Shown here piece by piece: positions 7,862 to 61,783 of a stretch of 64,000 bases of DNA. The notes below the pieces were generated by a model, which was not told the origin of the DNA, ran no database searches, and was given only the letters and a program-made list of their open reading frames with translations. Source of the stretch: Patescibacteria group bacterium (lineage in GTDB: Bacteria > Patescibacteriota > Patescibacteriia > UBA10025 > JAHIVO01); assembly GCA_041660605.1 (NCBI GenBank), contig JBAZWB010000001.1, forward strand, positions 9,295 to 73,294, given 5' to 3'. A program made the position numbers and the translations under genes. Every line of letters begins with the position of its first letter. Within the stretch, counting starts at the first letter, position 1.

Positions 7862-7978
7862 ACTCCAGCAGATGAACATTGCGTTCACTACTGGAGTTTT
7901 TTATTTTGCAATAGTTGCAATTATTATAAATCAAAAAACGCCTCTACATAGTAGAAACGTCTTTTGTTAATTCCGGCA

Positions 7979-8093
7979 ATTGCCTACTTTCCCCACGGAT
8001 TGCCCCGTAGTATCATCGGCGTAACCAGGCTTAACTTCTGAGTTCGGGATGGGATCAGGTGTGACCCTGGCACTTAAATCACCAGAGGCCAGG
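7979..8093 (-). rRNA. rrf: 5S rRNA
   Basis: Reverse complement reads ...CACACCTGATCCCATCCCGAACTCAGAAGTTAAGCC...GCCGATGATACTACGGGG...TGGGGAAAGTAGGCAA, which matches 5S consensus blocks. Confidence 0.85.
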
Positions 8094-8261
8094 AAATAAA
8101 ATGTTTTATTTCCTACGCCTCTTCAGTTTTGGCGATTTACGGTTTTAATGGCGTCAGATAGAATACGGCGCCAAAAAATAAGATAACTAGAATGAATATG
8201 AACACTAACTGACCATTTTTTACGTTATGCATTTTTGATTTTGCTATAAAAATTCAGTCTG

Positions 8262-11412
<3,151 letters not shown>

Positions 11413-30604: not shown

Positions 30605-30693
30605 TTTGGAGGGATTAGTTCTATACGCCGCCGGCTCGTGCAAACACGGGTTGGCGGTTTTTTTATTAATAATTAGTTGTATAGGCAGCTTAA

Positions 30694-30825
30694 CCCCGTT
30701 AGAAAATTATAAAACATCTATTTGGTTATTAAAGAAGGATAAAACCAAATTACCGTTTAAAATCACCATGGCCATTAGCTAATTTTCTAACGGGGTTGAC
30801 AGCACCTGTAATTGAACGCTAAAAT
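30694..30825 (+). repeat. Palindromic element copy 3 (15-bp terminal inverted repeats CCCCGTTAGAAAATT / AATTTTCTAACGGGG, about 102 nt) fused to the promoter TTGACA-N18-TAAAAT
   Basis: Terminal repeats at 30694-30708 and 30781-30795; TTGACA 30796-30801; TAAAAT 30820-30825; the interior is the reverse complement of the copy-4 interior. Confidence 0.55.
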
Positions 30826-36787: not shown

Positions 36788-37241
36788 AGGTTTGTTGGTA
36801 GTAAGTAGTTAGTTGTTTGTAGGAATCAGTGTAGCAGGGTTTATTTATTTTATCAAGGGTTTTAATTTACTTTTCTGTCCGCACCCCGCTATCCAGCGGG
36901 GCAGGCGCCAAAGTAACAAAAGAAGTGCCGCCGGTACAAAGAAATTAACAAAAACAGGCTCGTCGTCATTCCGCGTTGTAAACTCGCTCCTCGCTGTCGC
37001 TGCGTTCGCTCAAACAGTACAACGCGGTTGCCCATGGGCAACCATTCCTCCTCGCTCTGTTTTCGCCGCGCCCGCCGAAGCTTCGCTTCAGCGTTGCGGG
37101 CGGGTAACATTTCTTTGTAATCGGCGGATTAAATAATTTTACTACGATTACTCCGCAATGGGCGGGCTTGGGCATTATTAAAGAATTGGGAAATTGATGA
37201 TTGTAAATTGTTTGGAATTTGGGAATTGGATATTGGTACTT

Positions 37242-38174
37242 TTAAATAGGGATATCCAGCGCCGGATACTTTTTCCAGTCAGGGTCGGAGAAGTGCCACC
37301 ATTCAGTAGCAAAAGGCACGAATCCGGATTTGACCATGGCTTTTTCTAAAATCAGCATATTCTCCTGAGCTTTTTTAGAATGGCTGGGGTGGCCGCGGTG
37401 CGCGCGCGGCGAGAATTCATCGAACAGAGTCGGCATCTGCAGCTCGTGGCCGTTCATATCTACCAGCGTGCAATCAACCGCTGCCGCGCGCGTGTGGAAC
37501 GGTTTTTTTTTGGGATTGCCGATATAGCGTTCGTCCGGCATAAATTTCCACATTTGTTTCTGCACTGACAGGGGCCGATAGCTGTCCCAGATTTTCAATC
37601 CAAAACCCTGGCGGCGGAGCAGGCGCTGGGCTTGCTTCAGTTTCTCGGCGATAGTTTGCCGGGTTAAGATTATTTTATTCAGGTAAAGAGGTTTTTTCAG
37701 GAAGTTTTTATCAGTGGCATATATCGGCTCTGTAATAATAGTGGGGTCAATATTTTTTATTGCCACCAGGTTATTTTTATGCAGGAGGGAAGTTTTGTAT
37801 TTTCCCGGGCCCAGCGGTTTCAATTTAGCAATCTTTGCCTGCAACCCGCGCCGGTGTAATTTTTCCCGGAGTTTTTCGGTAAAAACGCCCTGGTCGTATC
37901 CCAGGCAGATGATATCCGGCCGCAGCGCCTCAATGATTTTTAGCTTATCGCCGCGATTGCCGAGCACTACGCGGTTGGCCAGGCCCAGCGCTTTCAGATT
38001 CTCCACTCTTTCAATTTCATTGAAATACGGCGAGTATCCCTTAACTTTTTTAACCGTTTCATCCAGGCCTACAACCACCATTAAAAAATCACCTCTGGTT
38101 TTCGCTTGTTTTAGCAGATAGAGGTGGCCGGGGTGGATTATATCGAATGTTCCGGTGATGAGGACCTTGGTCAT
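37242..38174 (-). CDS. Fusion protein: N-terminal cytidylyltransferase-like nucleotidyltransferase (HldE domain II-like) plus C-terminal VanX/DdpX-type D-Ala-D-Ala dipeptidase (M15D)
   Basis: N-terminus MTKVLITGTFDIIHPGHLYLL (HxGH); C-terminus HTRAAAVDCTLVD...EWWHF (VanX zinc-site motifs). Track ORF extends to 38246. Confidence 0.6.
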   Translation of the reverse strand: MTKVLITGTFDIIHPGHLYLLKQAKTRGDFLMVVVGLDETVKKVKGYSPYFNEIERVENLKALGLANRVVLGNRGDKLKIIEALRPDIICLGYDQGVFTEKLREKLHRRGLQAKIAKLKPLGPGKYKTSLLHKNNLVAIKNIDPTIITEPIYATDKNFLKKPLYLNKIILTRQTIAEKLKQAQRLLRRQGFGLKIWDSYRPLSVQKQMWKFMPDERYIGNPKKKPFHTRAAAVDCTLVDMNGHELQMPTLFDEFSPRAHRGHPSHSKKAQENMLILEKAMVKSGFVPFATEWWHFSDPDWKKYPALDIPI

Positions 38175-38403
38175 GGGGGTAGTTAATAGTAGGTAGTGAG
38201 TAGTAGGGAGAAGGTAATTAGCAGCTAATAATATATTAGCAGGCAATATTTAAGATAGGATTAAGCAATATACTACATAATTATAGCAGATTTGGCGGTG
38301 GATATATCGCTTTGACAAAACAGGCGTTCCGGTAGTAAGATTAACTCTTCTCAAAAAACAAACACAGAAAATGATATCTTTGAAAAATAGATTGGAGGAA
38401 GCA

Positions 38404-39873
38404 ATGTGCAGATTTCTTTATATCCACGATCCCAACAAAAGGATTGCTGGGATTGATATTACTGAAAGAATGTTTTGCGGACTTTCTGTACAACAACATG
38501 GCGGTCAAGATGGCGGTGGCATTGCCTATGTCGACGACGATGATGATGGCGGAAGTTTTGTTAAGGTTAGCAAGTTTTTTGGTCTGGTGGGAAGTCAGTA
38601 CGATCCCAATGGGGATAAGGGCAATCCATACAGGGATACATTTGCAAAATTGGCTAGAAGCAGGGCATTTAAGGCTTTGGGATTTCTGCGCTACTCGACG
38701 GCTGGTGCAGCCAACAATCTCATCCATTATCCGCCGCAGTATATTGATGAACTCAGCGTTGGTCGTGTGGTGCTGGCAATGAATGGGGATGTGCCAAATT
38801 TAGACAAACATCGTTCTGAGTTGACGAGCCAGGGAGTGGAGTTCTACTCGCAGAATGATAGCGAGTTTATGTTGCGATCACATTGCCACACCATGAGGTG
38901 CCAGGGCTGTACACGGGTAGCGGCTCTTCAGAAATACATGCAAGCAATACCAGGAGCTTATTCCGGGGTGGTCATGACAAAGGATAAAACGTATTTTGTC
39001 AGGGATCCCTGGGGTTTTCGGCCTTTTGTGGTCGGCTTGATTGATGGCAGTATCATCGTTGCCGCTTCCGAATCGTGTGCGCTTGATATGTTAGGAGCCA
39101 AGTTTCTATTTGAAGTGAAACGCGGCGAGATTATTGAGGTGGACGATGACGGCACGATGACTCATTACGATTTTCCCGGGCCGCTACCATTGCATTCCGC
39201 GCATTGCATTTTTTGCCTTGATTACTTCGCCAGCCCGGTCAGCAAGGTATTTATTGATGGCCGTGACATTGCCGATGTCCGTCAAAAAGGCTCATACTCT
39301 TTTGCGCTCGGCAGACAGCTCGCGGGCGAACACCCAGTTAGCGCGGATTTCGTAGCTTCATTGCCTTATTCCGGTGATCTAGCCGCAATTGGTTATTCTG
39401 AACAGTCCGGATTATCTTTTAAGGCGATATTCATCAGAAATATCTACGTGCCGCGTACGTTTATCATGTCACAGCAGCAAATCAGGGAGATGTTCGTTCG
39501 CCTTAAGTTTGCCTTAATGTCAGATGTTTTCCGTAAGCCAAGTCATCGGCGAGTCTGCCTGGTTGACGATTCAATCGTTCGGGCAACCACCATGCAGGGA
39601 ATCGTCGAAATACTTCGTGAGGCAGGTGCCGAAGAGATTCATCTGCGGATAAGTTTTCCGCCAATCACTGATCCATGTTTCATGGGCATAGCCATGCCGA
39701 CGAAACAGGAACTCATTGCCTCGTCAATGAGTGTGCCAGAGATACAGAGGCATCTCAAAGTAGATTCACTTGGTTATCTGTCTCCGGAGGGGGTAGCTAC
39801 CGTGTTGAAGCGTCGTGGTGACAATATTGAGGATTATTGCACTGCCTGCTACTCAGGGAAATATCCTATCTAA
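38404..39873 (+). CDS. purF: Amidophosphoribosyltransferase
   Basis: Met-Cys start (MCRF, Ntn-hydrolase nucleophile), QQHGGQDGGGIAYVD, PRTase motif VCLVDDSIVRATTM; start set at ATG 38404, not the track's 38371. Confidence 0.85.
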   Translation: MCRFLYIHDPNKRIAGIDITERMFCGLSVQQHGGQDGGGIAYVDDDDDGGSFVKVSKFFGLVGSQYDPNGDKGNPYRDTFAKLARSRAFKALGFLRYSTAGAANNLIHYPPQYIDELSVGRVVLAMNGDVPNLDKHRSELTSQGVEFYSQNDSEFMLRSHCHTMRCQGCTRVAALQKYMQAIPGAYSGVVMTKDKTYFVRDPWGFRPFVVGLIDGSIIVAASESCALDMLGAKFLFEVKRGEIIEVDDDGTMTHYDFPGPLPLHSAHCIFCLDYFASPVSKVFIDGRDIADVRQKGSYSFALGRQLAGEHPVSADFVASLPYSGDLAAIGYSEQSGLSFKAIFIRNIYVPRTFIMSQQQIREMFVRLKFALMSDVFRKPSHRRVCLVDDSIVRATTMQGIVEILREAGAEEIHLRISFPPITDPCFMGIAMPTKQELIASSMSVPEIQRHLKVDSLGYLSPEGVATVLKRRGDNIEDYCTACYSGKYPI

Positions 39874-39898
39874 GTTCAGTCAGATTTTTGATTTTACA

Positions 39899-39936
39899 AA
39901 GCCGTTCTCATTTGGAGGAGAAGAACGGCTTTTTTA
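39899..39936 (+). terminator. Rho-independent terminator of purF
   Basis: AAGCCGTTCTC...GAGAAGAACGGCTTTTTT. Confidence 0.55.
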
Positions 39937-39939
39937 AAT

Positions 39940-40030
39940 ATGAAGAAACGCCTACGGTTTTTCTTCATCGCATCTTTTCCCTAAGTTGTATCGCTCACCT
40001 TGGGACCTTATAACCCAAGGTTCGCGATGA
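39940..40030 (+). repeat. Roughly 90-nt repeat element, copy 1 (begins with the hairpin ATGAAGAAA-N11-TTTCTTCAT and ends ...CCTTGGG..CCCAAGGTTCGCGATGATTTATT)
   Basis: Near-identical to 45827-45960, same orientation, except for a 35-nt hairpin insertion in copy 2. Confidence 0.6.
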
Positions 40031-40352
40031 TTTATTATTTTTAATAGTTACGCCTTCCATCGGTTTTACCTCTAGCGAAAGTGGATGCGGCACGAAACCC
40101 GCGTGCTCGCGATTTTTTATAATTAATCTATAAAGGGGCTTGGTAGGATGAGTAGTCGATGCTTGGCATGATTATTAAATAGACATCTATTGATAATTGT
40201 GGGTGGTTTTATTAAGTGTGGTTTATAACTCAATAACGTCTGTCACTTTTTTAATTTGACATATTTGCTTTATTTTTGTTAAGATACGCTAATTAATGTA
40301 ATTGAAAGATCATTGTTATAACCTATAAAACTCTAGTTAGGAGGAGTTACAA

Positions 40353-41813
40353 ATGTCAGGAAAAAACGTACTGACAGCGCTAAGCAATCTGCCGGAACTC
40401 ATTCTGGCGATTATCCAAAAGCCGGATCTCATCATGGAGATTATCGGCAGGTGGAGGGAGCTGTTCAAGGTTCCCAGCAAGCAGAAACGCCAGCTGGGAG
40501 ACTTACTGCTGGATGAGCATCCCGCGATCACGCGTTTAGTGCTCAGGCAGGTCATGGCGGGTTCTCTGGATCTGAGCAAGTTTGTGACTGATTTGCCGGA
40601 AACGTATCAGGAAGATGCCAACCTCCGGATCACGGCTGTTTTGCTTTTCCTGTACGCGACCAACGATTCGCTTCTGAATAGGACGGACAAAGGATTTCCG
40701 ACTGTTGAATGGCTGGATCTCAAGGCACCTGAACCGACTCCCGTGGTGCGCGGAAAAAAGAAAACCGGCAAGAAAGGAAAGAAGACGCCTAAGGGTGCCG
40801 ACAATGCCAAGCCAGGCAAACCCGTGCCGGCCTCGAAACTGAAAGGCGTGAAGAAATTCGCGGACTTGCTGGCCAAATGCGGCAGCTTAGCAAATTTGCT
40901 GGCAACTTTCGAAGCGCACTCCGGCAAGGATGGGAAACTGACGCCATTTCTGCACGTCTGCGAAATATCAAACAGCACCTGGTATCAGTGGGCAAAAAAG
41001 GCGCACGCGATGGAAGCGGAAGCTGAAAAGGGTGGCGGAAAACCTGACAAGGGGTCGCCTGAAGGAGAAAAAGCCGTCCGTGGAAGGCTGGGAGAATTTA
41101 TCACCCAGCACAAAACGGCTGCCGAAGCCCTGAAAGTCCTGCAGTCTAAGCCGGAAGACAAAACGGTCCATGAATACGCAGAGTCGCTGGGCATTTCCGA
41201 CGCCAGTTACTACGCTTGGCCGGCCAAGCTGGTGGAATTAGCGGAAAAGGAGTCGAAAAAACCAGATGGAGGTCCTGGCAACGCCGACGACGGAACCGAT
41301 GTTACCTCTAAGGTGGTGGCCAAGCTTGGCAATAAAGCCAACGCCAAAGAGATGATTAAGGAAGCTGGGTCTATGTTGCAGCTGGCCATTAATCTTGGTG
41401 TCGCTGGCCTGACTACGTCCAATCTTGGTTATATTCTGCTCCACAAGTACGGTTTGCGCCTTAGTAAGGTGCTGGCGGAACCTGACGGAGCCGATGCGCC
41501 AGACGGTGGTAATCCTCCGGACACTGGCAAGAAGGGTAGCGCTGACACTACCTCACCGATCATGGCTGGGTTGTCTATATTGACTTCCGCAGATATGTCT
41601 GATGATCAGAGGCAGAAATTCTGCGAATTTGCCAGCGCTTTAGGCGCTAGTACAGCCAGTGAAGTTTTCGAAATCGTGGAGAAGGGAGTGAAGGATGATT
41701 TTCCCAAGGCGGCTGCGAAGTTTGTGGAAGCAGGGATTTTAACAGCTTCGTCAGCAGGGGAGCCTCCGGTGGAACAGAAATACTTTAAGTGGAAGTTCAA
41801 ACTGGTCCACTAG
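40353..41813 (+). CDS. Hypothetical protein (486 aa) with a Lys-rich low-complexity segment; first gene of a 3-gene operon
   Basis: TAGGAGGAG RBS; TTGACA-N17-TTAAGAT promoter at about 40253; KKKTGKKGKKTPKG tract. Confidence 0.5.
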   Translation: MSGKNVLTALSNLPELILAIIQKPDLIMEIIGRWRELFKVPSKQKRQLGDLLLDEHPAITRLVLRQVMAGSLDLSKFVTDLPETYQEDANLRITAVLLFLYATNDSLLNRTDKGFPTVEWLDLKAPEPTPVVRGKKKTGKKGKKTPKGADNAKPGKPVPASKLKGVKKFADLLAKCGSLANLLATFEAHSGKDGKLTPFLHVCEISNSTWYQWAKKAHAMEAEAEKGGGKPDKGSPEGEKAVRGRLGEFITQHKTAAEALKVLQSKPEDKTVHEYAESLGISDASYYAWPAKLVELAEKESKKPDGGPGNADDGTDVTSKVVAKLGNKANAKEMIKEAGSMLQLAINLGVAGLTTSNLGYILLHKYGLRLSKVLAEPDGADAPDGGNPPDTGKKGSADTTSPIMAGLSILTSADMSDDQRQKFCEFASALGASTASEVFEIVEKGVKDDFPKAAAKFVEAGILTASSAGEPPVEQKYFKWKFKLVH

Positions 41814-41968
41814 GATTCAACGTTATTTGATAGTAGTCTAAGTTCACGCTCTCTCGGGGGTGTGAACTTTTTTATTCCTCCCGCTTAAATATTTCATATT
41901 GACTTAAATTGTTTTATATAATAAGATTGGCTAATTATGTTCTTTTTCACAATCAATTGGAGGGGAAA

Positions 41969-42889
41969 ATGAGAATAAATTCCATTTTCAGTGTGGAAAC
42001 ATATCTCAAGAAACTTCTGGAAATTCTCCCCAAGTTTGACCAGGAATTATTCTGGAATGTTTTGGGGAAGCAGAGGTGGTTTCTGGAAATTATTGGCAGC
42101 CTGAAATTGCCGGCCTTATGCCTTCTGGACGATGAAAAATACTGGCGGTTTATCGGCAGCAATAACTGGCTGTCAGGTTTCAGCGGTGAGGTGACTTTTG
42201 ACGAGCTGGCAGCTGCTTTTCCAACCTGGTACCGCGATCCAGGCGCGTCTATGTCTGCTGAATCTTTTCAGGTCGCCCTGGGATTGTTTATCTGGCTGAA
42301 AACCGCCGAGCAAATGGGACTGGTAAGGCTGGTAAAATCCAAGCCTAAGCCGGTTAAAGACGGAAAAACATTGGCAGAAGAAGCGCAGTGCCGGGAAATT
42401 GCCGCTCGTTTCAACAAAGTGGGCTTGTGGAGGAAGGTTTTGGATGGCAAATTGCCTTTTGCCTCGTTGGACAGTTTACGCCAGTGGGTGAGTGAGCATC
42501 AGAACACATTTGGCTTGCCAGTCGACGTGGTGACAGCCTTCATTACCCAGAAGTCGGTTTGTTTCTCGCAGTCCGGCCGGATATTTTGGCGCCATCCCTG
42601 CGGATTTATTTTTACCGACGAGTGCTACCGCTCTTTCAGAAGTTTATTTATCCAGGATGATCCTGCGGCTGAAGCTGGATCGGTGGCGGACCAGTATCAC
42701 AGGCACGGGGGCAATGATACCAGGTGGAGCGATAGATTCTCCGAAGAATACGGTTTTGGCTGGTTTATCGTTACTACTCTGGCGGAATACTATTTTGGCA
42801 GCCTGGGCAAGGTACCGAAGACGCCACCGTTTTCAGAGGCAAGTGCGGTTATTGAGACGACCCTGCAGATCAGTCCGAACAAAATCTAA
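41969..42889 (+). CDS. Hypothetical protein, paralogous to the N-terminal extension of the downstream sigma factor
   Basis: GGAGGGG RBS before ATG 41969; shared blocks with the next gene (FWNVLGKQRWF/FWGFLSKQGWF; LFIWLKTAEQMGL/LFYWFRTAEKMEL; WRHPCGFIFTDECYR/WQHPSGLRLTEDAYCR). Confidence 0.5.
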   Translation: MRINSIFSVETYLKKLLEILPKFDQELFWNVLGKQRWFLEIIGSLKLPALCLLDDEKYWRFIGSNNWLSGFSGEVTFDELAAAFPTWYRDPGASMSAESFQVALGLFIWLKTAEQMGLVRLVKSKPKPVKDGKTLAEEAQCREIAARFNKVGLWRKVLDGKLPFASLDSLRQWVSEHQNTFGLPVDVVTAFITQKSVCFSQSGRIFWRHPCGFIFTDECYRSFRSLFIQDDPAAEAGSVADQYHRHGGNDTRWSDRFSEEYGFGWFIVTTLAEYYFGSLGKVPKTPPFSEASAVIETTLQISPNKI

Positions 42890-42989
42890 GCCTGTATCCA
42901 GCAATGGTACAGGCTTTTTTATTTGACGATTGCACGCTTATATATTAGAGTATCTTAATAAAGTTCTTTGATAAAAGAGGAGTAGAAAA

Positions 42990-45248
42990 GTGAAAATAAC
43001 TGATACGACAAGCGTTTTCTATTTTTTCCAGCAGTTGATGCAATCACTGCCAACATTGGAGGCGGGTGATTTTTGGGGATTCTTATCCAAACAGGGATGG
43101 TTTTCATCGATGGTGAGCAGCGTAATTGTCCCACCACCGGAGAGTTTTGGAACACAGGAATTCTGGCGACTGACCAACAATCAATTTTGGCTGATGGATG
43201 TTTTGGATGCAGCGAGCAATAACGGGAAATGCCTGGTTTCCGGTGAATTGCGCCGTTTGTTTCCGAAATCTCTGAGGTCATGCCGAACTCAAAAACCGGG
43301 GAAATCTTTTATCCTGGCATGCGAGCTTTTTTATTGGTTTCGCACTGCCGAGAAGATGGAGTTATTTAGCGTAATTCAGGCTGCCCAGACGCAAACGGCA
43401 TTGTACGTTTCGCTGGAATCCGGCAAGTCAGTTGAGATTAGCCGGGCGATTCAGGATATTTGGACGCAGTGCGGTTTATGGACTGAAGTGGCTAAGCGTC
43501 TCAATGCCACGATTGATGAGCTGCGTGAGTGGCTTAAGTGTTACGCGAATTTGCTGCAAGACGGCATTACCAGCGAGATCCTACGGCCTTTTCTGACCGG
43601 ACAGGCGGAAAAAACCGGGGACGGCTGCTGGCAGCATCCTTCCGGGTTACGTTTGACTGAAGATGCATATTGTCGACTGGTGTTCTTATCAGTAGAGCAG
43701 AACATCAGCGAAAGGGAGCTGATTGTCGCGACTTACGAGAATTATAAAGCCGGCGAGATGAAGCAGATATGCGAACATTTGTGCCTGTCTGCCACGCATT
43801 TTCTGGTTTTGGTGCAGTACTACCGCGGTTCGCTGACTAGGAACAATCTAGAAAGCATTAACAGTTTTTTTGATCCACCGCAGCCGGTTGACGGCTGCAG
43901 CGGCCTGGATCTGCTGTTGGCTTTATTAGAAAAAGCCGATGACTATCTTTTTCCCACGTTTTCCCGGATTATGAATCATGATGCCCGGGCACTTGCATTG
44001 TCTGAAGAAATTGAGCCAGTGCTCCGTTCAGTTCTGCGGCCGCTTAGTGATGACGATTTTTTTGAATATCTGCTGGAGCACGAATCTATTCTGCCTCTTC
44101 TGCCGAGAACCGAAAACGGTAGGACGGTGCCCTGGAGTGTTTTTTCGCAGTATGCCCCGGGAATATTAAGGCAGGTAGTCAGCCAGGAAGTTTTGCTCGA
44201 GGTAGCGCTTTGTTTTGTCTGGCTGTTTCACGCCCGCCTTACGCTTGATTTCAGCGTTTCGGTACCCGTGAAAAAGAGGAGAGCAAGGTCTGCGGCTGTT
44301 GTGGTTGATGTTGATATTGACGGGGATCTGGACGCGCACAGCGAAACGCAATATTCCCCGCGCCGCAGGCGAAAACATTCCAAATATGATATTCTCGAAA
44401 ATCCATCGCTGGATTTGTATTTAGTGGAGATTGGCCGGACTCCTTTGATTAACAGGGACGAGGAGGTGGCTTTGGCAAAGCGTATTCAGGATGGCGATAT
44501 TGAAGCTTTGCATAAGCTGGTGAAAGCCAACTTGCGTTTTGTCGTTTCTGTAGCCAAGTGTTTTCAAAATCAAGGTTTGCCATTAGCGGATCTGATTAAT
44601 GAGGGAAACATCGGGTTGATTAAAGCCGCCAAACGTTTTGACTGGACGCGCGGCTTCAAATTCATCAGCTACGCGGTTTGGTGGATTCGCCAGACTATTT
44701 GCCAGGCCTTGGCAGAGGGTGCCCGGACAATCAGATTGCCGTTGAACCGCATAGGTACCCTGCACAAGATCAACAAAACCAGGGAGAAATTGCTTCAAGA
44801 CCTTGGTCACCCTCCCAGTGATAAGCAAGTGGCCGATGAACTTGGGATGAAAGAGGAAGATGTGGCCTTTACTTTGATGGCGGGTAGTGGGTCGCTTTCG
44901 CTGGATAACACGCTCTCGACTTCCGGCGATAGTGAAACTACTTTGCTGGAAGTCATACCTGATACCGGTCCGGCTCCGACGCAGACAGTCATGGATGATA
45001 GTCTGCATGGCGAGATTATGGCAGCGCTTGATCAGCTGAGTGTGAGAGAAACAAGGATAATCAAGCTTTATTTCGGTATTGACCAGGAAAAAGCCCTGAC
45101 TCTGGAGGAAATTGGGGCTATTGAAAACGTGACTCGGGAAAGGGTCCGACAGATAAAAGAGGATGCGATTCGCAGGTTGCGCAGAGGGAAAGCGTCAAAA
45201 TTTTTACGGGCTTATTTCGATGATCAGGATAGGGAGGGAGCAAGATAG
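42990..45248 (+). CDS. rpoD: RpoD-like sigma-70 factor carrying a roughly 440-aa N-terminal extension
   Basis: C-terminal 290 aa show regions 1.2-4.2 (EEVALAKRIQDGD, ANLRFVVSVAKCFQNQGLPLADLINEGNIGLIKAAKRFD, YAVWWIRQTI, TLEEIGAIENVTRERVRQIKEDAIRRLRR); GTG start with AAGAGGAG RBS. Confidence 0.8.
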   Translation: MKITDTTSVFYFFQQLMQSLPTLEAGDFWGFLSKQGWFSSMVSSVIVPPPESFGTQEFWRLTNNQFWLMDVLDAASNNGKCLVSGELRRLFPKSLRSCRTQKPGKSFILACELFYWFRTAEKMELFSVIQAAQTQTALYVSLESGKSVEISRAIQDIWTQCGLWTEVAKRLNATIDELREWLKCYANLLQDGITSEILRPFLTGQAEKTGDGCWQHPSGLRLTEDAYCRLVFLSVEQNISERELIVATYENYKAGEMKQICEHLCLSATHFLVLVQYYRGSLTRNNLESINSFFDPPQPVDGCSGLDLLLALLEKADDYLFPTFSRIMNHDARALALSEEIEPVLRSVLRPLSDDDFFEYLLEHESILPLLPRTENGRTVPWSVFSQYAPGILRQVVSQEVLLEVALCFVWLFHARLTLDFSVSVPVKKRRARSAAVVVDVDIDGDLDAHSETQYSPRRRRKHSKYDILENPSLDLYLVEIGRTPLINRDEEVALAKRIQDGDIEALHKLVKANLRFVVSVAKCFQNQGLPLADLINEGNIGLIKAAKRFDWTRGFKFISYAVWWIRQTICQALAEGARTIRLPLNRIGTLHKINKTREKLLQDLGHPPSDKQVADELGMKEEDVAFTLMAGSGSLSLDNTLSTSGDSETTLLEVIPDTGPAPTQTVMDDSLHGEIMAALDQLSVRETRIIKLYFGIDQEKALTLEEIGAIENVTRERVRQIKEDAIRRLRRGKASKFLRAYFDDQDREGAR

Positions 45249-45250
45249 AC

Positions 45251-45290
45251 AGCCGGCATGATAGTTTATACTGTTATGACCGGCTTTTTT
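45251..45290 (+). terminator. Rho-independent terminator of the sigma-factor operon
   Basis: AGCCGGCATGATAG...CTGTTATGACCGGCTTTTTT. Confidence 0.5.
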
Positions 45291-45826
45291 ATTTCGGGAA
45301 ACCCCATTTAAGAAACGGTGTTTCCCGACGCCTTTCCCCAAAGTTAAGGCATTTATTTCGTCGCGCAGCCTGGCGGCTTTTTTTCGAGAAGCGTTTGATT
45401 GATCGTTCACTTTTTATGAAATAACCCTAATTGTGTGATTGAGAGCGGTGTCTTTATTCAAAAAAAATACCCTCATCAATAATCCCCTTACAGTTCGGGC
45501 ATGTCATCTCCTTGTGCCTCCGGAGACACTCCTACGCTGTTGGGCTATGGAGGATGATTGATGAGGGACGGGGTTAGCCTAAGAAAGCGGTGGTCGTGAA
45601 CGGGGCATCCATCGCGACCAAGCTTAGGCTCATGGCTCTCGAGAAGAGCTATTAATATTCTAGCATATTTTGACTGTCCCGCAAGATTGCACCCAACGGT
45701 CACCGGAGTTTTTTTGTGAGTGTGGATCCATTCAGTGTATTTAGTGACTTCGTGATGTTTTTTCTGACTTTTTAAGCGCAGTAATTTCGTCTCGTAACTG
45801 AGCCGCTTTTTCAAATTCCAAAATCT

Positions 45827-45960
45827 ATGAAGAAACACCTACGGTTTTTCTTCATCGCTACTTTTCCCTAAGTTGTATCGCTCACCTTGGGACCTCCCGC
45901 CCGACTGCTTCACATTCGAAGCGGGCGCGGTATAACCCAAGGTTCGCGATGATTTATTTT
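45827..45960 (+). repeat. Repeat element copy 2 (with a 35-nt GC-rich hairpin insertion); overlaps and extends the 3' end of uvrB
   Basis: Aligned base by base with 39940-40030; the uvrB reading frame continues through it. Confidence 0.6.
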
Positions 45961-47959
45961 GATTTCTAATTGCTGCAAGCTGGTCTCTCAATAAAGCTGC
46001 TTTCTCGAAATCTAGATTCTTTGCTGCTATTTCCATTCTAGACTCAAGGTCTTCAATGAGATGCGGGATTTCTTCTTTGGGAATATTTTTGAAAAATGAC
46101 TGGGAGGAATCTTCCTCCTTAAGTCTTCCGCCGGCTAAGCGCGATTCTTTGATAGCTTTTATAATGGATTGCGGAGTAATGTGATGTTTTTTATTATAAT
46201 CTTCCTGCATTTTTCTGCGCCGCACGGTTTCTTTTATTGCCCTGTCCATTGAGCCGGTCACCTTGTCCGCATACATGATGATGTGCCCTTCGAGATGCCG
46301 TGCGGCGCGGCCCATGGTCTGCATCAGCGCGGTTTCCGAGCGCAGATAACCTTCTTTATCGGCATCCAGGATGGCAATCAGGGAAACTTCCGGCAGATCC
46401 AGCCCTTCACGCAAAAGGTTGATCCCCACCACTACGTCAAACTTCCCTAAGCGCAGATCACGCAGTATTTCCAGCCTTTCCATAGTGTCCACTTCAGAGT
46501 GCAAATACTGGACTTTTACGTCCAAATCAGCCAGATATTCCGTCAGATCTTCAGACATGCGCTTGGTCAGGGTGGTAACCAGCACCCGCTGTTTTTTCGC
46601 CACGGTTTTTTTAATTTCTCCTAAGAGGTCATCAATTTGATTTTTTGTCGTCCGGATTTCAATAGTCGGATCCAGCAAGCCGGTTGGCCGGATTAACTGT
46701 TCGACGATCTGGTCTGAAATTTCCTTCTCATATTCACTGGGCGTAGCGGAAGCATAGATAGTTTGCCTGGCGCGCTTTTTAAATTCTTCAAAAGTCAGCG
46801 GCCGATTGTCCATGGCAGCCGGCACGCGGAAGCCGAAATTAACCAGCGTTTCCTTGCGTGAACGGTCGCCGAAGTACATGCCTTTGATCTGCGGCAGGGT
46901 CATGTGCGATTCGTCTATGAACAGCAGGAAGTCTTTAGGGAAGAATTCAAACAGTGTATTTGGTGGAAGTCCCGGCCGGCGCCCGTCGAAATAGCGCGAG
47001 TAATTTTCAATGCCATTGCAAAAACCGATTTCCCGGATGGTTTCAATGTCATAGCGGGTCCGCTGTTCCAGCCGCTGGGCTTCCACTAGTTTGTTTTCGC
47101 TCTGGAATTTTTTGACCTGCTCTTCCATGTCGTGCTGGATTTGCTCCAGCGCGTTTTTCATCATCTCGTCCGGCGCCAGATAGTGCCGCGCCGGGTAAAT
47201 ATCCACTTCCGGCAGCTGAGCAACTATTTTGTTCGTTAGAGAATCAACTTCAGAGATTTTTTCTATCTGGTTGCCGAAGAATTCAATCCGATAAAAATTG
47301 TTTTCTGAGAAAGGCGGGAAGACTTCCAGGATTTCGCCCAGCACGCGGAAACGGCTGCGCCACAAATCAGTCTGGTTCCTCTGATACCGGTTGTTGACCA
47401 GCGCGTGCAGGATAATGTTGCGGTCGTAGTTTTGCCCGGATTTGAGATTTATCACATCGCGCTTGTATTCCGTGGGCGAGCCGAGGCCGTAAATGCAGGA
47501 AACCGAGGCCACGATGATCACGTCGTTTCTGGAGAGCAGGGCCTGCGTTGAGGCATGCCGCAGGCGGTCGATTTCTTCGTTGAGCTGAGTCTCCTTTTCT
47601 ATGTAGGTGTCGGTTCTGGGTATATAGGCTTCAGGCTGGTAGTAGTCGTAATAGGAAACAAAATAATTGACGGAATTATCAGGGAAAAAATCCTGGAATT
47701 CGCTGGCCAGCTGGGCAGCCAGCGTTTTATTATGCGAAATAATCAGCGTCGGTTTCTGCAATTGCTGGATGACGTTGGCCATGGTGAAGGTTTTCCCTGA
47801 GCCGGTTACGCCTAATAATGTCTGGTTGCGATGGCCTTTTTTTAGGCCAGCCACGAGCTTTTTAATGGCTTGAGGCTGATCTCCGGTTGGTTTGAATGGT
47901 GACTTTAATTTAAACTTCATAAGTAAATATACTATAACTTTGGCGGTCGGATTCGTCAA
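45839..47959 (-). CDS. uvrB: Excinuclease ABC subunit B
   Basis: Walker [10 protein letters not shown], helicase motifs, and C-terminal UVR motif [12 protein letters not shown]; the last roughly 45 codons are supplied by the repeat element. Confidence 0.9.
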
Positions 47960-47966
47960 AGGTTGG

Positions 47967-48102
47967 CCCCGTTAGAAAATTAGCCAATGGCCGTTTGATA
48001 ATAAACAATAATTTTATTTGAACCTTCTTTAATAACCAAAAAGATGTTTTATAATTTTCTAACGGGGTTGACAAAAAGAGGAAACCGTAGTAGGTTGTAG
48101 TG
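47967..48102 (+). repeat. Palindromic element copy 4 (terminal repeats CCCCGTTAGAAAATT / AATTTTCTAACGGGG, about 107 nt) with outward TTGACA-N17-TAGGTT
   Basis: Terminal repeats at 47967-47981 and 48053-48067; TTGACA 48068-48073; interior is the reverse complement of the copy-3 interior (for example ...CCTTCTTTAATAACCAAA.AGATGTTTTATAATT). Confidence 0.55.
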
Positions 48103-54660: not shown

Positions 54661-54842
54661 TTCTTTTTGAAATCAACGCATTGCACATGTGCTTGGTTTC
54701 AGCAATCGGAGGTGACGTTTGCACAAACGCCACCTCCCTCTTTTCCAGTTCGTGAGTACACATTCTCGGACTGAAAAAGAAACCAAAACAGAAACAAAAA
54801 ACAAAGTCCCGACGGTTTTCACCGTACGGGCGAGGAGAGAGT

Positions 54843-55829: not shown

Positions 55830-56167
55830 TATTGCACTAATGGAGGTGACGTTTGCACAAACGCCACCTCCTTCATTTCCAGCCTATCACCCTACGCTAA
55901 AGCTTCGGGTGGTTGTCTGAAAAAGAAATTTTGTCTCCCCGCACCGGATCAGGCGCTGCGTTTGTTCATTACATTACGAATAAGCGCGGCCTCCTCTCTC
56001 CAGCCTGGTCCGATGCGGGGAGGGAATTATTAAATAATAGCGGTTAGATGTCACAAACCGCGCCGTCGGAGATAGATTTTTTCCGCTGGTTTTTTATGTT
56101 ATAATGATTTTAGCGAATCTCTGTCTATGTACGGAGTTTCGTTAATTCATCTTTCATAGGAGGATAT

Positions 56168-61317: not shown

Positions 61318-61588
61318 GACGTGCGTTTCTCATAGTTCTATCAAGGCTGCTAGCTTGGGCGGCCTTTTTTAATTCAGCCAAGTTGATTTTTTGCCGAAAT
61401 TGTGATAAAATAGAGATGGTGATCCGAACAAGCTTATGTTTGTGAGGATCCCGGTCCTCTTTTCTTAAGAAGGGGACTTAGGCCCGCACCACCAGATTGT
61501 CAGTTATTATATGAATAGCTGCCAGCCTGGTGCGGGTCTTCTTTAATATTTAACGACTAGCTCCCGCGGGGCGGATTGATTAAACCCA

Positions 61589-61650
61589 GGCGAGCAAGCT
61601 CGCCACCTACCCTTTCAAATATGCGTAGTAGGTGCAGAGCTTGCTCTGCT
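61589..61650 (-). repeat. Inverted copy of the 27516-27580 double-hairpin repeat
   Basis: The reverse complement matches GCAGAGCAAGCTCTGCACCTAC...GTAGGTGGCGAGCTTGCTCGCC. Confidence 0.6.
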
Positions 61651-61755
61651 AGTGTATAAAACCCCCGCGATGGCTGGGCCTTCTCCCGAATAATTACCCT
61701 GAAGATTTCCCATCTTTGCGGGTAATAAACAAAAGGTGTGGGCCTTCTTTAATAT

Positions 61756-61783
61756 TTGACTATTTATTGTTGACTGCTATAAT
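61756..61783 (+). promoter_or_regulatory. Promoter TTGACT-N16-TATAAT driving the riboswitch-met operon
   Basis: Seen directly. Confidence 0.5.

Follow-up and report, generated by a model that had tools for sequence, protein, structure and literature searches.

The locus and its repeat

Described here is a small, hairpin-rich repeat element from a Patescibacteria group bacterium, as found twice within a 64,000-nucleotide (nt) stretch of DNA that is referred to below as the window (assembly GCA_041660605.1, contig JBAZWB010000001.1, forward-strand positions 9,295 to 73,294). One copy follows the intrinsic terminator of purF. The other overlaps the 3' end of uvrB, where it is translated, in frame, as the C-terminus of UvrB. 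Coordinates are those of the window, unless they follow an L-numbered handle, which designates instead a locus from a related genome. The features upon which the argument is based are as follows, with R1 a covariance model that is described further on:

39939..40036, plus strand: copy 1 of the element, comprising hairpin 1 (39940-39968), a linker (39969-39989), a short hairpin 2 (39990-40028), and the tail GATTTATT (40029-40036); 119.3 bits with R1
45826..45958, plus strand: copy 2, comprising hairpin 1 (45827-45855), linker (45856-45876), hairpin 2 (45877-45950), and tail (45951-45958); 102.5 bits with R1
45896..45930, plus strand: GC-rich apical extension of hairpin 2, missing in copy 1, with the base of its stem found also in L003
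45839..47920, minus strand: uvrB coding sequence, 693 amino acids (aa), of which copy 2 supplies codons 655-693 as well as the TAG stop (45958..45839)
45961..46018, minus strand: segment A, encoding the UVR motif in frame, immediately upstream of the element
45741..45821, minus strand: B, a displaced conventional uvrB 3' end (LEFEKAAQLRDEITALKKSEKTSRSH and then a stop), out of frame and beginning at the end of the element; tblastn E-value (E) approximately 3e-10

The original prediction, which was made from the letters of the window alone, was that the same element is present here twice and in the same orientation, and this is what is found. Copy 1 and copy 2 (its end falling at 45958/60) are direct repeats that differ by three substitutions across a 98-nt alignment, i.e., across all that they hold in common, for 96% identity, with BLAST returning the match as two blocks (E 1e-28 and 1e-10). 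The flanks of the two copies are unrelated to each other, and sensitive searches supply no third full copy within the window. A contig from ENA, which may share its origin with the window, is 100% identical to it across 22,121 bp, both copies included. A Logan contig (run SRR6484324) also matches 37137-40003 at 100%, with its end falling inside of the repeat, as is expected at repeats.

As a unit, the element can be described as consisting of four parts. First is hairpin 1, with 9 bp plus a further 2-3 bp of stem and a conserved loop. Within the window this is ATGAAGAAA-N11-TTTCTTCAT, the 9-bp-stem hairpin that had been predicted for the element's start, in which a further stem of 3 bp closes a loop of UAC. 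Second is a linker of approximately 21 nt that is rich in pyrimidine. Third is hairpin 2, in which an outer stem of 5 bp and an inner stem of 5-8 bp are separated by a TC/TC internal loop, and which has an apical part of from 3 to 52 nt. Within the window this hairpin is ATCGC / TC / ACCTTGGG...CCCAAGGT / TC / GCGAT. Fourth is a tail, GATGATTTAWT. Folding z-scores for the copies range from -4.1 to -6.8 on either strand.

A UvrB end supplied by the repeat

The final 39 codons of uvrB (45958..45842, NKSSR...DEEKP) lie in copy 2, where they are read in frame through hairpin 2 and the linker, and the TAG stop (45841..45839) is in the loop of hairpin 1. It is confirmed, that is, that the C-terminal 39 aa of UvrB along with its stop are supplied by the repeat, and that the 3' end of this gene truly has been remodelled. 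The predicted overlap of copy 2 with the uvrB stop therefore is real, as is translation of the UvrB tail from the repeat, but that tail is 39 aa rather than the approximately 45 aa that had been proposed. Beyond the TAG the uvrB frame stays open for another 97 codons (45545-45838, minus strand).

Comparison with orthologues, which had been suggested as a check on this claim, bears it out. A protein search with UvrB returned 120 sequences, all of which have at most 78% identity except for the identical entry, P0001. The 119 orthologues cover roughly 92-98% of the query, do not possess the copy-2 tail, and end instead 2-14 residues past the UVR motif, in short tails that are rich in Lys and Arg. 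A search of 5.8 billion proteins with the six-frame translation of the element returned the UvrB of this genome as sole match. In terms of annotation, the UvrB tail of this metagenome-assembled genome is to be taken as repeat-derived, rather than as a lineage-specific domain.

One other genome possesses the same junction. The closest orthologue, P0002 (locus L001), ends in ...NQNKSSRGRGPKRYK followed by a stop, with GRGPKRYK as its tail. Past NQ, the L001 uvrB DNA shows homology to three parts of the element, namely tail, hairpin 2, and linker, such that the point of joining is the same (…NQ|NKSSR…), with 13 uvrB codons plus the stop falling within the element. The uvrB-element junction is common, that is, to two genomes whose UvrB proteins are 78% identical, and the association of uvrB with the element therefore is either old or imported.

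Displaced uvrB 3' ends

B, the conventional end found on the far side of the element, is an uninterrupted remnant that matches UvrB C-termini as well as, with nhmmer, segment A (E 0.002), and it is nearer than is the in-frame segment A to 91 of 111 orthologues. The UVR-coding segment hence is present in two versions, A and B, one to each side of the element and with 65% nt identity. By hand count, their differences at third, first, and second codon positions number 12, 9, and 3, respectively, which is the pattern expected of two sequences that each have evolved as coding DNA rather than of a recent target duplication. Deletion of 194 nt (46015..45822) would result in a conventional UvrB of 661 aa.

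Further into the interval are additional pieces, both of uvrB and of the element:

45345..45395, minus strand: C, an older, decayed uvrB 3' remnant (NASRKKAARLRDEINAL); E approximately 1e-4 in an 851-nt search space, with nhmmer matches to the uvrB 3' ends of other loci
45294..45349, plus strand: w3, a partial element consisting of a type-II hairpin 1 (TCGGGAAAC..GTTTCCCGA) and linker; approximately 80% identity to the 5' half of the L003 element, with one compensatory pair
40045..40122, plus strand: c1b, two-thirds (the 3' part) of an extended hairpin 2 of the L003 type; matched to L003 by nhmmer with E 2.7e-5

C adjoins the linker of w3. Among 81 other loci, no remnants of the B or C type are found downstream of uvrB, although weak ones resembling C would have escaped detection. 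That a mobile element has remodelled the end of uvrB, as originally predicted, consequently holds in the sense that a conventional end is stranded after the repeat, but it does not hold as a simple insertion, the UVR segment being present twice and a third, decayed copy being present as well. Between B and C, on the uvrB strand, there is in addition a long hairpin (CCCTCATCAAT..ATTGATGAGGG) that is followed by T8 (45473-45567, minus strand).

The other partial copy, c1b, is found directly after copy 1. It matches the interior and 3' arm of the L003 extended hairpin 2, and it ends with GCGAT plus T6, i.e., in a manner that is terminator-like. The L006 element likewise has a second hairpin-2-like unit plus a T-run behind it.

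The 35 nt by which copy 2 exceeds copy 1 were described as an inserted GC-rich hairpin. They indeed are extra and GC-rich, are unique within the window, and fold as an apical extension on hairpin 2, but their description as an insertion is doubtful. That is, the base of the extension, CCGCCCG...AAGCGGGCGCGG, is common to copy 2 and L003, and therefore its loss from copy 1 is likelier than its gain in copy 2. Judging from this shared stem base, the extension probably is ancestral, with copy 1 having lost it.

Copies in other genomes and covariation of stems

In searching for the element beyond the window, 80 uvrB loci were gathered from related genomes. R1 was built from copy 1, copy 2, and a copy found by nhmmer in L006, and was used to search 1.5 Mb of sequence. 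Five matches only were obtained, consisting of copies 1 and 2 along with the following:

L006 1295-1386: element, R1 98.7 bits
L003 1589-1735: element, R1 E 3e-4
L001 4155-4225: element, R1 E 0.018

Elements occur at a density of approximately one per 20-30 kb where they are present, and in most close relatives the R1 search supplies no copy within the approximately 20 kb around uvrB. A 20-mer from hairpin 2 has one match, which is the L003 contig, among 241 million metagenome records and has none among 185,579 species genomes. The pattern of hairpin 1, as sought in viral contigs, gives chance matches only. The element family is found in a narrow group of Kerfeldbacteria-like Patescibacteria, to which the organism of the window also belongs.

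Pairing is seen in 97% of base-pair cells across the five copies, with changes to both sides in 15 of the 24 pairs. No shuffle out of 500 matches this, and structures that are slid by 1-3 columns pair at 37-50%. The alignment of the five was fitted to R1 and hence is biased towards structure. The conclusion that the stems covary is nevertheless safe given the size of the effect as well as the plain sequences themselves. Particularly, the stem of hairpin 1 is ATGAAGAAA/TTTCTTCAT in the window versus ATGAGGGGA/TCCCCTCAT in L006, and hairpin 2 has an inner stem of ATCCTG/CAGGAT in L006 versus GGCC/GGCC in L001. What is kept among the window, L006, and L001 are unpaired parts: the hairpin-1 loop, the CGC following it, the linker (CTTTYCCC...), the TC/TC internal loop, and the tail.

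These same stems supply a different interpretation of what initially was read as a faint T-arm, and thereby as a hint of a short interspersed nuclear element (SINE) or miniature inverted-repeat transposable element (MITE) having a tRNA origin. The T-arm motif, CCCAAGGTTCG, is simply the 3' arm of hairpin 2, pairing with ACCTTGGG, and it is CCAGGAT or GGCCT in L006 and L001. ARAGORN reports zero tRNAs or tmRNAs in 39000-47000, and the Rfam tRNA model does not match the element, even at E<=10. Descent from a tRNA, in whose favor there is only this resemblance of the motif, is accordingly dismissed as wholly improbable, as far as ARAGORN and Rfam can tell.

Placement after terminators

Also seen is a consistency in where the element is found, which is just past terminators. 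Two such terminators are those of genes within the window:

39898..39935, plus strand: purF intrinsic terminator (hairpin plus T6), -17.6 kcal/mol
45250..45290, plus strand: rpoD (sigma-70) intrinsic terminator, -23.1 kcal/mol

Copy 1, as had been predicted, is just after the first of these, beginning 3 nt past the T-run. The partial element w3 begins 3 nt past the T-run of the second, and the L006 element is found 7 nt past the terminator of a small RNA gene. At purF, rpoD, and L006, that is, a strong hairpin plus T-run is found 3-8 nt upstream of the element. The L003 element is located behind a weaker hairpin plus T-run. As for copy 2, it is 12 nt past GCCGCTTTTTC, which is the antisense of the EFEKAA codons of a uvrB remnant and which has a weak hairpin ahead of it. 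Read in antisense, the UVR-coding segment that adjoins copy 2 itself resembles a weak terminator (hairpin plus T5).

At one site, filled and empty states can be compared. This is a small RNA gene followed by an S-adenosylmethionine (SAM) riboswitch, an arrangement present in L010, L006, and the window. In L010 the site is empty, with the terminator T-run continuing directly into the riboswitch promoter. In L006 it is filled by the element. In the window there instead is a different palindromic insert, of approximately 190 nt. Such presence and absence at an orthologous site argues for insertion and against an ancestral functional RNA.

Two of the participants at this site may be described further. 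The small RNA-like gene, which is unannotated and starts with GGTGATCCGA..., is found at 61409-61545 (plus strand) in the window, at 1522-1395 (minus strand) in L006, and at 2914-2790 (minus strand) in L010. It possesses its own promoter and intrinsic terminator, is conserved upstream of the SAM riboswitch/metK region in all three genomes, and has no Rfam match. The approximately 190-nt insert (61554-61740) is strongly palindromic, has a regional fold z-score of -7.3, and is without an R1 match. Its flanks (61522-61547 and 61735-61760) form an imperfect 26-nt direct repeat, GGTGYGGGYCTTCTTTAATATTTRAC, which duplicates the 3' half of a terminator.

It is here that a different explanation for the element must be considered, which is that it could be a functional, structured module that is under selection at the level of RNA or DNA, as opposed to selfish DNA, e.g., one that stabilises or insulates 3' ends past terminators, that serves as a small RNA, or that binds a protein. 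Its copies would then result from occasional recombination, with overlap of uvrB being a by-product of tightly convergent genes. Covariation of stems together with conservation of loops, linker, TC/TC, and tail are what such a module should display, and variation in the apical length of hairpin 2 is seen among many functional RNAs as well. The constant position and orientation of the element relative to upstream terminators, along with its low number of copies, similarly are in keeping with selected function. There is no match to an Rfam family, however: using Rfam 15, neither the gathering threshold nor a cut-off of E<=10 brings up one that overlaps the two window copies, and none is found in L001-L003 at E<=0.1. 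Nor is there room for a promoter between the upstream terminator and hairpin 1. Counts of G-U versus A-C favor neither strand, three G-U pairs pointing to the plus strand and two A-C cells being G-U on the other. The emptiness of the orthologous site in L010, and its occupation by another insert in the window, stand against this explanation also, as does the lack of a copy around uvrB in most close relatives. So too does the near identity of the two window copies given the unrelatedness of their flanks. Overall, a selected module seems unlikely, though not to an extreme.

The interval between copies

The 5.8 kb separating the two copies encode proteins of 486 aa and 306/326 aa along with a divergent sigma-70, and include the remnants B and C. 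The corresponding open reading frames, all on the plus strand, are as follows:

40353-41813, plus strand: 486 aa
41909-42889, plus strand: 326 aa
42990-45248, plus strand: sigma-70, 752 aa

The 326-aa reading frame and an N-terminal extension on the 752-aa sigma-70 both find their match in a single stretch of L015, suggesting a domain that is common to the two. The 486-aa protein was considered as a possible transposase but displays only a weak match to an IS3-type helix-turn-helix (E 5e-5), which is below the Pfam cut-off.

That two direct repeats bracket this interval invites an explanation in terms of Campbell-type integration, whereby a 5.8-kb segment with its own copy of the element would have recombined into a single element located between purF and uvrB, the present copies being the duplicated junctions. 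Copy 1 has the purF terminator to its left and copy 2 has uvrB to its right, as such an event would leave them. In L007, uvrB and purF are adjacent, convergent, and 87 nt apart, with one bidirectional terminator in common, and among relatives the distance between these genes ranges from that 87 nt to 6 kb. The 486-aa protein furthermore is an orphan, having two distant homologues in 1.84 billion representatives, the halves of an L003-type element are at opposite ends of the interval (c1b to the left and w3 to the right), and B and C are inside of it. A sigma-70 gene that is convergent with uvrB is found as well in L002, L005, L008, and L011, however, and so probably is ancestral there. No integrase is found among the reading frames that were scanned, the element is present also at unrelated loci in L006 and L003 and so is not merely an attachment site of the 5.8-kb segment, and the difference between A and B is left unexplained. 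Integration of this sort therefore is viewed as improbable.

How the present uvrB end may have arisen

The explanation that is preferred, and which is held to be somewhat more probable than its opposite, is that the repeat is a hairpin-rich insertion element, non-autonomous and low in copy number, which is found after terminators, with the present end of uvrB, i.e., A plus element, having come about most likely via recombination and with B having been stranded as a consequence. The steps might be envisaged as follows. An element would settle a few nucleotides downstream of the T-runs of intrinsic terminators, oriented in the direction of transcription, with the mechanism of its spread presumably recognising either hairpin DNA or terminators. 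Donor DNA that already carried an L001-like uvrB-element junction may then have recombined into this locus, joining by homology inside of uvrB and illegitimately at the end of the element, thereby leaving the conventional end, B, stranded. C together with w3 could be the trace of an earlier such round.

A number of points weigh against the above explanation. In terms of an insertion element, terminal inverted repeats are not conserved (of 20 end positions, those that match number 10-11 for the window copies and 6 for L006). Flanking words are inconsistent among copies when looked at as target-site duplications, whose presence had been proposed as a check, these being TTTTTAA for copy 1, TCTA for copy 2, and TCAA for L006, within AT-rich flanks. 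A transposase or integrase domain is found in none of the 38 that were scanned of the window's 40 largest open reading frames. Copies are few, with two that are full and two that are partial in the 64 kb and three in 1.43 Mb of related loci. A function under selection, whether of RNA or of DNA, would likewise account for conserved loops and stems that covary. In terms of the history of uvrB, the 76-nt duplication of the UVR segment is not explained by simple insertion, and a sliding-window test for mosaicism in uvrB reveals no long tract that is specifically nearer to L001, so import of the present end cannot be demonstrated. If, on the other hand, the L001 junction is ancestral, then the intactness of B is hard to explain.

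A bolder version, which we regard as quite improbable, is that the element could be a previously undescribed, terminator-seeking mobile element of Patescibacteria, one without inverted ends or target duplication and carrying a replacement uvrB end, or else could represent a new class of structured RNA located after terminators. Were it a terminator-seeking element, then its insertion at uvrB would exchange the 3' end of a repair gene that is essential and yet spare the gene itself.

Other features of the window and of related loci

Additional observations were made that do not concern the element directly. Downstream of uvrB in L001 (4335-4425) and L002 (2245-2335) is a conserved, approximately 90-nt hairpin plus terminator (CCCCGTCA...GGTGACCGAA...TGACGGGG TTTTTT), for which there is no match in Rfam and which cannot be aligned to the window hairpin. 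Beside the L003 element is a GC-rich, apparently structured non-coding stretch (L003 2040-2270) that ends in a terminator and is without an Rfam match. Within the window, a 41-nt direct repeat with a GC hairpin (GGAGGTGACGTTTGCACAAACGCCACCTCC) is found at 54708-54748 and 55842-55882, i.e., with a spacing of 1134 nt, and is terminator-like. Genes for 23S and 5S rRNA are at 7971-11406 (minus strand). A 16S gene is not present in the window, meaning that the rRNA genes are unlinked, and the match to 23S is 3141 nt versus a model of 2925 nt, which suggests an insertion.

Implications

This is a real and indeed tidy case of a repeat remodelling a gene, of a kind that is broadly familiar. Small non-autonomous repeats are almost undescribed in the Candidate Phyla Radiation, and a search of the literature for MITEs in Patescibacteria found nothing relevant. 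The locus keeps several states together, which are a repeat-encoded uvrB end, a displaced conventional end, and an older remnant. It therefore serves as a clear natural example of repeats rewriting the ends of genes while a functional motif is kept. In addition, consistent placement after terminators, along with filled and empty orthologous sites, provides a testable handle on the mechanism of insertion.

Comparison with known systems

Several kinds of element were considered and rejected. A diversity-generating retroelement would not account for the differences between the two UVR segments, as segment B has an A nucleotide at only 11 of the 24 A/B mismatches (hand count), and no reverse transcriptase domain is found in neighboring genes. 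A self-splicing intron in uvrB is set aside given no Rfam group I or group II match and given that copy 1 is intergenic. An intron or translational bypass by which B would be the actual C-terminus is set aside as well, there being no stop codon at the putative take-off site and nothing to suggest splicing. The consensus boxes of an integron attC or dif-like site are absent, as judged by eye only.

Classical MITEs (Correia, ERIC, QMITE, and others) are similar to this element in size, in being non-coding and able to fold, and in that they can alter the ends of genes, and the element was initially labelled as possibly one. That label is not retained, however, since the element fails both on conserved inverted ends and on target duplications that are consistent and of fixed length. 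A true MITE-like repeat of the window makes the contrast clear. It is approximately 105 nt long, occurs at 30692-30795 (plus strand) and, inverted, at 47965-48069, with 85-88% identity, and possesses 18-nt terminal inverted repeats (AACCCCGTTAGAAAATTA / TAATTTTCTAACGGGGTT). One of its copies is just upstream of the start of uvrB.

Integrative elements that target the 3' ends of genes and supply a new end in exchange resemble what is seen here in that the current end of a gene is followed, in tandem, by displaced older ends of that same gene. They differ in that no integrase is found here, and the 'island' between new and old ends is only approximately 135 nt. Class C group II introns and elements of the IS200/IS605 type insert just past terminators or other hairpins, and do so without inverted ends or target duplications. 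Differing from the former, the element has no match to an Rfam intron domain, with no reverse transcriptase found for it. Differing from the latter, there is no Y1 transposase among the window reading frames that were scanned and no conserved flanking tetranucleotide.

Rickettsia palindromic elements (RPEs) are short, hairpin-forming, non-autonomous repeats that join open reading frames in frame, thereby adding a peptide to housekeeping proteins (PMC10969869, a review). The element is like them in being approximately 100-150 nt, hairpin-forming, non-autonomous, and, as found in UvrB, read in frame into a protein of its host. RPEs, however, have numerous insertions per genome, within genes, and the peptide that they encode is conserved, whereas many in-frame insertions with a conserved peptide were not found here. 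Instead there is one coding copy, which replaces a C-terminal tail and supplies a stop, the peptide is not conserved, the remaining copies are intergenic, and the phylum is a different one.

REP/BIME repeats and the pneumococcal SPRITE are palindromic repeats that are associated with terminators, with SPRITE itself terminator-like (PMC10969869). Here the differences are a far lower copy number, no sequence similarity, two distinct hairpins with a conserved linker, and, versus REP/BIME, no RAYT-type transposase known for this genome. The likenesses are that REP/BIME (REPIN) and SPRITE repeats, as with the element, are imperfect palindromes without terminal inverted repeats, repeated in the genome and found intergenically, 3' of genes and near terminators, where they often are clustered or nested. 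The tandem hairpin-2-like units of copy 1 plus c1b, and of the second hairpin in L006, are reminiscent of that clustering. By analogy, the element thus resembles REP/BIME, RPE, and SPRITE repeats more than it does a classical MITE.

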